Positions 55,713 to 56,237 of a DNA stretch of 64,000 bases are shown here, one piece after another. Under the pieces are notes generated by a model. It had not been told where the DNA came from. It ran no database searches and saw only the letters and a program-made list of their open reading frames with translations. Made by a program: the position numbers and the translations under genes. This DNA comes from an uncultured Chloroflexia bacterium (lineage in GTDB: Bacteria; Chloroflexota; Chloroflexia; Chloroflexales; Kallotenuaceae). How positions within the stretch are numbered: position 1 is the stretch's first letter; each line of letters starts with the position of its first letter. Location of the stretch: the NCBI GenBank assembly GCA_963790835.1, contig CAWBPU010000001.1, positions 1,342,057-1,406,056 on the forward strand. Reading direction: 5' to 3'.

Positions 55713-56237
55713 ATGAACGAAATGACGAAGTTCCCTCAAGTTGGCGAGCGTGCGCCCGCTTTTTCGCTCGAAGCGACGTATCCATCGCGGGTCACTCTCG
55801 ACGAGTATCGTGGAATGAATGTGCTACTAGCGTTCTACCCGCTCGATTTCAGCGGTGGCTGAAGAAGCGAACTTGCCGACTTGCAGAGCGACATGGAGCG
55901 CTGGCAAGCGGCAAATACCCAGGTTCTGGGTATCAGCATTGATAGTGTCTACGCACACCGCGCGTTCGCCAAAGAGCTTAATCTTGAGTTTCCGTTGTTA
56001 GCGGACTTTCATCCCAAAGGCGATGTCGCCCGCAAGTATGGTGTTTACCGTGACGAGCGCGGGTATGCACAGCGGTCGATCTTCATCATTGACGGGGATG
56101 GTGTGCTGCGCTGGAGCAAAATATTTCTCGGAGACATGCCGAACATGAACCAGTTGCAGGGTGTTCTTGATGACTTGAACGCAGTAGACCCTAGGGCGAC
56201 CGTTCACCGACTGCCCACAGAGTATAGGGAGCGATAG
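55713..56237 (+). CDS. AhpE/BCP-like 1-Cys peroxiredoxin with in-frame TGA (55860-55862) at the peroxidatic position; candidate selenocysteine protein
   Basis: ATG 55713, TGA 55860 and ORF 55881-56237 share one frame. The joined 174-aa product reads ..VLLAFYPLDFSGG[U]RSELADLQSD..AQRSIFIIDGDG.., matching PxxxSxxC and the conserved Arg of Prx. Confidence 0.7.
55873..55914 (+). promoter_or_regulatory. SECIS-like stem-loop 10 nt downstream of the TGA
   Basis: UUGCCG[A]CUUGC[AG]AGCG-ACAUGGAG-CGCU[G]GCAAGCGGCAA: 6+5+4 bp, a bulged A and an 8-nt G-containing apical loop starting 29 nt after the UGA. Confidence 0.55.

Follow-up and report, generated by a model that had tools for sequence, protein, structure and literature searches.

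We report that a TGA codon at positions 55860-55862 of a 64,000-nucleotide stretch from an uncultured Chloroflexia bacterium (the whole of which is referred to as the window) is, on comparative sequence evidence, very probably the selenocysteine (Sec) codon of a functional Sec-peroxiredoxin gene. An initial reading made from the letters of the window, without database searches (the sequence-only reading), had taken the gene for a Sec-peroxiredoxin rather than a nonsense mutant. This proposal is supported by conservation of the TGA among relatives, by purifying selection, and by RNA structure specific to TGA-type genes, the homologs that have TGA in the catalytic column. From that conservation and structure, together with the signs that both halves of the gene are translated, we infer that this organism inserts Sec at the codon. 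The features in question are as follows.

55704-55707, plus strand: AGGA, a Shine-Dalgarno-like sequence 5 nt 5' of the start codon, found by inspection and of putative function.
55713-56237, plus strand: predicted coding sequence (CDS) of a 174-residue Sec-containing 1-Sec peroxiredoxin (AhpC/TSA, AhpE-like), from translation, a Pfam match, the match to Mycobacterium tuberculosis AhpE (MtAhpE), and purifying selection.
55860-55862, plus strand: UGA probably read as Sec, residue 50 in the motif P43-x-x-x-S47-x-x-U50, aligned to the peroxidatic Cys of MtAhpE; TGA is kept in the related loci L001 and L064-L067.
55873-55914, plus strand: hairpin 1, a stem-loop at the position of a selenocysteine insertion sequence (SECIS), with 6 + 5 + 4 = 15 bp, a bulged A at 55879, and an 8-nt loop at 55891-55898.
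55893-55895, plus strand: internal ATG (Met61) in the loop of hairpin 1, the false start of a 114-residue fragment (database protein P0001).
55915-55933, plus strand: hairpin 2, with an 8-bp stem AUACCCAG/CUGGGUAU and a GUU triloop at 55923-55925, encoding N-T-Q-V-L-G-I, from the RNAalifold consensus of 92 TGA-type sequences.

The frame opens at ATG 55713 on the plus strand and closes at TAG 56235-56237, the TGA being its sole in-frame interruption. Mechanical calling leaves an open reading frame (ORF) on either side, at 55683/55713..55862 and 55881..56237, and the coordinates given in the sequence-only reading, in which the frame passes through the TGA into the second ORF without a shift, are confirmed. 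ATG 55713 is favored over ATG 55683 as the start since the upstream frame is not kept in L001, a locus of the Chloroflexia metagenome-assembled genome (MAG) MFD02581.bin.2.20, where an indel falls at alignment columns 55-64. At the other end, conservation does not extend to the last nine or so codons: CGA (Arg166) of the window is replaced by TAA in L001, and the deeper orthologs end near residue 155. This tail corresponds to 56208-56237 in the window and to approximately 5496-5525 in L001. The final 47 nt of the CDS overlap a minus-strand ORF of 335 residues (56191-57198), which has no Pfam match.

Protein family and catalytic site

With Cys put in place of the stop, the joined 174-residue product matches the Pfam family AhpC-TSA (PF00578) with an E-value of 3.7e-36 and a score of 124.2 bits, the cutoff being 26. 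The match covers residues 10-134, which correspond to profile positions 1-123 of 124, and therefore spans the TGA. Among solved structures, MtAhpE (1xvw) comes closest, with E = 1e-24 over residues 9-137, and the top seven PDB sequences are all AhpE or an AhpC/TSA protein of the same size, in agreement with the earlier description of the product as AhpE/BCP-like. In the alignment, FYPLDFSGG-(TGA)-RSEL lies under FFPLAFTGIC-QGEL of MtAhpE, which places the TGA in the column of the peroxidatic Cys, and the active-site motif PxxxT/SxxC(U) is present as P43-L-D-F-S47-G-G-U50. The catalytic Arg is also kept, the Arg of QRSIFIID being aligned with that of ANRGTFVVD. The sequence-only reading had assigned the TGA to the catalytic Cys, had quoted the active-site sequence of MtAhpE, and had regarded the context of the active-site Arg as intact; the 1xvw alignment bears out each of these points.

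No Cys residue occurs in the 174-residue product, and hence no resolving Cys. Since the protein is closest to the 1-Cys enzyme AhpE and has no cysteine at all, it is best described, from its sequence, as a 1-Sec, AhpE-like peroxiredoxin with an S-G-G-U motif. MtAhpE itself (Rv2238c; PDB 1xvw and 1xxu) is a 1-Cys, mycoredoxin-dependent enzyme that shares the active-site motif, the Arg and the lack of a resolving Cys and is of similar size, but its peroxidatic residue is Cys, where the window protein is predicted to have Sec. Cys-type relatives of the window gene carry the database annotation 'mycoredoxin-dependent peroxiredoxin'. By analogy with the family, a peroxidatic Sec-selenolate would attack the peroxide, and the resulting selenenic acid would then be reduced by an external thiol partner; such a mechanism, like that of 1-Cys AhpE, is suggested because the protein is without any cysteine.

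PrxU of Eubacterium acidaminophilum is reportedly a biochemically characterized Sec-peroxiredoxin, described by Sohling and colleagues in 2001, and to our knowledge it is the only one. The window protein has the same catalytic Sec position, but the PrxU model is of 233 positions and represents a different peroxiredoxin subfamily. The PrxU equivalog NF040737 is the best match in NCBIfam, yet scores 76.3 bits, far below its cutoff of 270, and thus the window protein is not a PrxU ortholog.

Sec-peroxiredoxins as such are already well known, and the window gene adds a member to an established family, that of proteins with a T/SxxU motif within COG1225/PF00578 (PMC1088965, PMC1794560, PMC13188914). 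The same sources record that Sec forms arose from Cys forms several times, and that the family spans many phyla and is abundant in metagenomes, with Cys homologs widespread. The window protein resembles the Sec-peroxiredoxins of Zhang and Gladyshev in its AhpC/TSA fold family, in having Sec at PxxxT/SxxU, and in the stem-loop directly after the UGA. It differs in that its clade has the rarer S-G-G-U variant, has no Cys (1-Sec), and is represented here by a Chloroflexia MAG.

Annotation as fragments

Database protein P0001 (114 residues, MERWQAAN...) matches the C-terminal part of the window protein at 100% identity, and the nearest database relatives are likewise fragments, of 97-101 residues, all of which begin at the equivalent internal Met. 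Such fragments are what gene callers make of a selenoprotein gene, and the splitting of this gene by ORF callers had been anticipated from the sequence. The appropriate correction is to replace the 114-residue database fragment by one intact selenoenzyme of 174 residues, and the same correction applies to about 100 family members that are seen as 97-101-residue fragments or as split ORFs.

The fragments could instead be taken at face value, with the TGA terminating one polypeptide and the downstream part made separately from ATG 55893 (Met61). This ATG does lie in the loop of hairpin 1, and throughout the clade gene callers take it for the start. Two such polypeptides are nonetheless highly improbable, as neither would have the catalytic residue, and both the Pfam domain and the AhpE alignment cross the TGA uninterrupted. 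From the TGA to Met61, 10 codons intervene, which are in frame and conserved as protein (ELADLQ), the data require no ribosome-binding site, and ATG 55893 sits within a stable structure.

Conservation of the TGA and selection on both halves of the gene

To sample the family, 147 loci were fetched by peptide patterns that exclude the catalytic column, and 154 homologous hits were surveyed in them. The catalytic column reads TGA in 101 hits, TGC in 46 and TGT in seven, with no TAA, TAG or other sense codon in any, so that alignment with Cys-containing homologs, a check suggested by the sequence-only reading, finds TGA or TGC/TGT only. L001 matches the window at 97% nucleotide identity over the gene, as against 93-94% over the flanks, and has the TGA. 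Four deeper orthologs, L064-L067, with 66-73% protein identity to the window protein, all have TGA in the same column; in their contigs, an in-frame N-terminal part ending in FSGG is followed by TGA and then by QNELADLQ. One of the four also has the same upstream synteny, an M20 peptidase and then a GNAT acetyltransferase. Close relatives with a Cys codon and no conserved hairpin had been named beforehand as the outcome that would speak against Sec; the outcome in L001 and L064-L067 is the opposite. The clade of the window gene proper comprises six sequences, a metagenome scan having returned only relatives of at most 49% identity. More broadly, TGA-type genes occur in MAGs labelled as Chloroflexia, Anaerolineae, Dehalococcoidia, Acidobacteriota, Thermoanaerobaculia, Planctomycetota, Binatia and delta-proteobacteria.

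This distribution speaks strongly against a misread TGC or TGT, whether the error arose in sequencing or in assembly. The quality of the assembly is imperfect, to judge from 46 indels between the window and L001, but the errors seen are indels and not substitutions, and the same TGA is found in six independent assemblies from different projects as well as in about 100 more distant members. We regard an error at this codon as scarcely credible and have rejected it on the strength of the six assemblies. A reassigned genetic code was also rejected, because TGA is a common stop in the window, terminating 12 of its 36 long ORFs.

Selection was assessed on either side of the TGA. For the four deep orthologs, raw proportions are given, as the Jukes-Cantor dS (rate of synonymous substitution) is undefined where synonymous sites are saturated. 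The ratio of nonsynonymous to synonymous differences (pN/pS) is 0.21-0.38 over the N-terminal 42 codons and 0.23-0.29 over the C-terminal 79 codons, with pN of about 0.18-0.25 on either side of the TGA and pS saturated at 0.66-0.87; in round figures, pN is about 0.19 and pS about 0.8 in each half. Low pN with saturated pS before as well as after the TGA indicates that the gene is translated and under constraint in both halves. In the comparison with L001, the corresponding ratio of substitution rates (dN/dS) is 0.30; that of neighboring genes ranges from 0.10 to 0.48.

The synonymous sites themselves are not uniform along the gene. Among codons for the same amino acid in the window clade, 51% differ in nucleotide sequence upstream of the TGA and 51% further downstream, but only 12% do so in codons +1 to +25. 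This suppression is significant in comparisons of the window with its orthologs (Fisher p = 1e-3 to 7e-6). The 75 nt that follow the TGA are thus nearly frozen at synonymous sites, a pattern that points to constraint at the level of RNA.

RNA structure downstream of the TGA

The same 75 nt are strongly structured in TGA-type genes, with a mean z-score of -3.17 as against -0.35 in Cys-type genes (medians -3.3 and -0.4; Mann-Whitney p = 9e-21). Of the 57 in-frame TGAs in the window that are flanked by open frame upstream and downstream, this one is followed by the strongest structure. An alignment of the 92 distinct TGA-type sequences is free of gaps, and their mean pairing profile is sharply phased: approximately 10 unpaired nt, a first hairpin with its loop at columns 32-35, and a second at columns 56-74. 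The pairing-probability profile of Cys-type genes is flat. To illustrate, columns 12-21 pair with columns 44-55 at a probability of 0.5-0.8 in TGA-type genes, as against 0.01-0.04 in Cys-type genes. Across phyla, the family thus keeps the pair of neighboring hairpins in a fixed register behind the UGA.

Hairpin 1 begins 10 nt after the TGA, and its loop, ACAUGGAG in the fold of minimum free energy (MFE), begins at the 29th nt. The fold has an MFE of -28.4 kcal/mol (z = -3.68; 0 of 200 shuffles as stable), with -21.6 kcal/mol for the hairpin alone. The hairpin described in the sequence-only reading, with its 15 bp, bulged A and 8-nt loop, was recovered at the same coordinates. Nearly all TGA-type genes have a hairpin at the same position, although its sequence and exact register vary between subfamilies. 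This variation in register explains why RNAalifold, when run on all 92 TGA-type sequences, does not recover hairpin 1 but only hairpin 2. When the register of the largest subfamily is imposed on hairpin 1, 56-63% of cells are paired, which beats shuffled alignments on paired cells and on covariation score, but not on the count of covarying pairs.

Hairpin 2, which is absent from the sequence-only reading, directly abuts hairpin 1 on its downstream side and is the more conserved of the two, being near-invariant and specific to TGA-type genes. Across the 92 sequences, 96.9% of its cells are paired. Columns 58 and 72 form A-U 48 times and G-C 37 times, a covariation that couples a change between Thr and Ala codons to a synonymous change of a Gly codon, and for columns 57 and 73 the counts are 78 for U-A and seven for C-G. 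At the three loop positions the probability of pairing is about 0.05, and the loop starts with G-U or G-G in approximately 90 of the 92 family members. In the 49 Cys-type genes, which also encode QVLGI, the same pairs form in 65.6% of cells, a level reached by 125 of 500 shuffles and so no better than chance, and the compensatory changes are lacking. The searchable literature on Sec-peroxiredoxins makes no mention of a second hairpin, which is weak evidence given the literature covered. The one point that departs from the known picture is hairpin 2, which is seen family-wide and whose loop, although canonical and of the SelB type, lies at a distance from the UGA that is not canonical.

Two TGA-type genes, L118 (693-770) and L135 (402-479), are without an intact hairpin 2, and in both the apical loop of hairpin 1 is a canonical GGC, 23 nt from the UGA. 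Very distant TGA-type peroxiredoxin-like genes (FYPKNNTPG-(TGA)-NRQLA) occur beside a Cys-type peroxiredoxin in L103 (approximately 1555-1932) and L129 (approximately 2043-2420); these have a single hairpin, with a loop that starts 18 nt after the TGA, and no hairpin 2.

Relation to the bacterial SECIS model and the possible site of SelB binding

In the proposed mechanism, the structured mRNA just 3' of the UGA, consisting of about 10 single-stranded nt, hairpin 1 and the abutting hairpin 2, would direct recoding, with SelB carrying Sec-tRNA(Sec) presumably bound to one of the two apical loops while the ribosome holds the UGA in its A site. The published model of the bacterial SECIS (bSECIS) has an apical loop of 3-9 nt, a stem of 4-16 bp and a G among the first two nucleotides of the loop (PMC13188914), as well as a spacing of 16-37 nt from UGA to loop and an MFE of at most -7.5 kcal/mol (PMC13188914, Fig. 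2A). Hairpin 1 agrees with this model in loop and stem size (8 nt, with a 4-bp upper stem) and in spacing and MFE (28 nt, -21.6 kcal/mol), but its MFE loop, ACAUGGAG, has no G at either of its two leading positions. The earlier statement that the start of the loop falls in the bacterial SECIS range agrees with the 16-37 nt of the model. The orthologs suggest a register in which this difference disappears: when it is applied to the window, the loop becomes GACAUGGA, which has the G, at -20.5 rather than -21.6 kcal/mol and thus at a cost of only 1.1 kcal/mol, and in L064-L066 the MFE fold itself has the loop G (GAAAUGGA).

The loop and stem size of hairpin 2 (3-nt GUU, 8 bp), its loop-start G[G/U] and its MFE (-9.5 kcal/mol) all fit the model, but its loop lies 60 nt from the UGA in linear sequence, outside the 16-37 nt allowed. 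With hairpin 1 folded out, the effective spacing is 10 + 8 = 18 nt, which is also the mode across the family. For comparison, the GGUC loop of the Escherichia coli fdhF SECIS, whose sequence was verified against 5,413 genomes, starts 18 nt after its UGA. Like the structure in the window, the fdhF SECIS is a stem-loop within coding sequence after the UGA, and hairpin 2 shares with it the core CAGGU(C/U)CUG and a G-U/G-G loop; it differs in the 60-nt linear distance and in the 42-nt hairpin that intervenes.

These parallels raise the tentative and, in our estimation, somewhat doubtful possibility of a bipartite bacterial SECIS, in which hairpin 2, formed by the Q-V-L-G codons (CAG GUN CUG GG), would be the SelB-binding element and hairpin 1 a spacer. 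Folding of hairpin 1 would take 42 nt out of the path and so restore the canonical 18-nt distance, as in E. coli fdhF. The two genes without hairpin 2, L118 and L135, fit such a division of labor, since it is there that hairpin 1 has a canonical GGC loop. The closing stem of hairpin 1 and its apical part pair equally well (probabilities of about 0.7-0.8), which favors neither the role of spacer nor that of SelB site. QVLG codons that are pre-adapted to form a SelB-type loop could explain the repeated switches from Cys to Sec in peroxiredoxins. If hairpin 2 is indeed the SelB site, prediction tools that search only 16-37 nt from the UGA read the wrong element in a bacterial selenoprotein family that ranks among the most abundant, and the family becomes a natural test of how strict the spacing from UGA to SECIS must be.

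Sec machinery and remaining alternatives

Several observations weigh against the assignment of the TGA to Sec. No selA, selB, selD or tRNA-Sec gene was found within the 64-kb window; Pfam searches of its 30 largest ORFs gave no Sec machinery, nor did a tblastn search with E. coli SelD against the window and the 147 loci. Rfam, applied to the whole window at the gathering threshold and to 55780-56000 at E <= 10, returned no SECIS or other family, the lone match on 55780-56000 being sR53 at E = 2.4, which is noise. The MFE fold of hairpin 1 in the window has three of the four published bSECIS features, and across the family hairpin 1 has all four in only 34 of the 92 MFE folds. Finally, a neighboring gene has a lineage-specific frameshift, which implies some decay or assembly error in this genome.

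A nonsense-mutated pseudogene, or a relic in a lineage without Sec machinery, would draw on these points: translation would end at the TGA and no active enzyme would be made, as might be expected where the machinery is not found in the 64-kb window, where the neighboring FAD-monooxygenase gene is frameshifted but intact in L001, and where a dN/dS of 0.30 against L001 is not especially low. We consider this very unlikely. The TGA is common to six independent assemblies at 66-100% protein identity; the column is never TAA or TAG; selection is purifying 3' of the TGA; the gene is more similar to L001 than are its flanks (97% versus 93-94%); and the hairpins are intact, their single substitution in L001 being the change from U-A to U-G.

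The remaining alternative is a readthrough of the UGA that involves no selenium, through near-cognate suppression or through Cys entering by way of the Sec pathway under selenium limitation. Misinsertion of Cys at Sec codons under selenium limitation occurs in other systems and provides a precedent. As an account of this gene it is highly unlikely, given hairpins that are specific to TGA-type genes and that include a SelB-type G-U loop, a tRNA-SeC gene near one family member (L130), and a strict alternation of TGA with Cys codons, which is the signature of Sec/Cys pairs (PMC13188914).

In L130, a metagenomic locus, the TGA-type gene (146-625) is followed approximately 365 nt downstream by the tRNA-SeC gene, with anticodon TCA (990-1084), a notable adjacency. 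The Chloroflexi are known to have the Sec-decoding trait and their own variants of tRNA-Sec (PMC5322559, PMC5389517). The window gene marks this particular Chloroflexia lineage as a probable user of selenocysteine.

Neighborhood of the gene and related loci

An FAD_binding_3 monooxygenase at 57686-58940 on the minus strand is divided into two overlapping ORFs by a 1-nt indel at 58228, but L001, at 94% identity, has it intact in one ORF (6951-8213). The split reflects a genuine lineage-specific frameshift or else an error of assembly. The sequence-only reading had held that all other gene disruptions in the window are frameshifts; this holds for the monooxygenase, the single case checked. Between 50154 and 61258, the window differs from L001 by 46 indel events in about 10.5 kb, of which four fall in homopolymer runs of at least 3, and is unusually rich in indels for an identity of 93-94%. 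An esterase gene at 54586-55452 aligns to L001 in four pieces. Elsewhere in the window, three large ORFs have no Pfam match at E <= 1e-3: 37635-39533 (minus strand, 632 residues), 39619-41139 (plus strand, 506 residues) and 43331-46378 (plus strand, 1015 residues).

Among the related loci, L005 has a Cys-type copy of the peroxiredoxin gene plus a TGA-type copy on the other strand (3915-4385, minus). A small DUF3072 gene lies just 3' of the Sec-peroxiredoxin gene in two orthologous loci, at 4354-4599 in L064 and at 858-1082 in L067.

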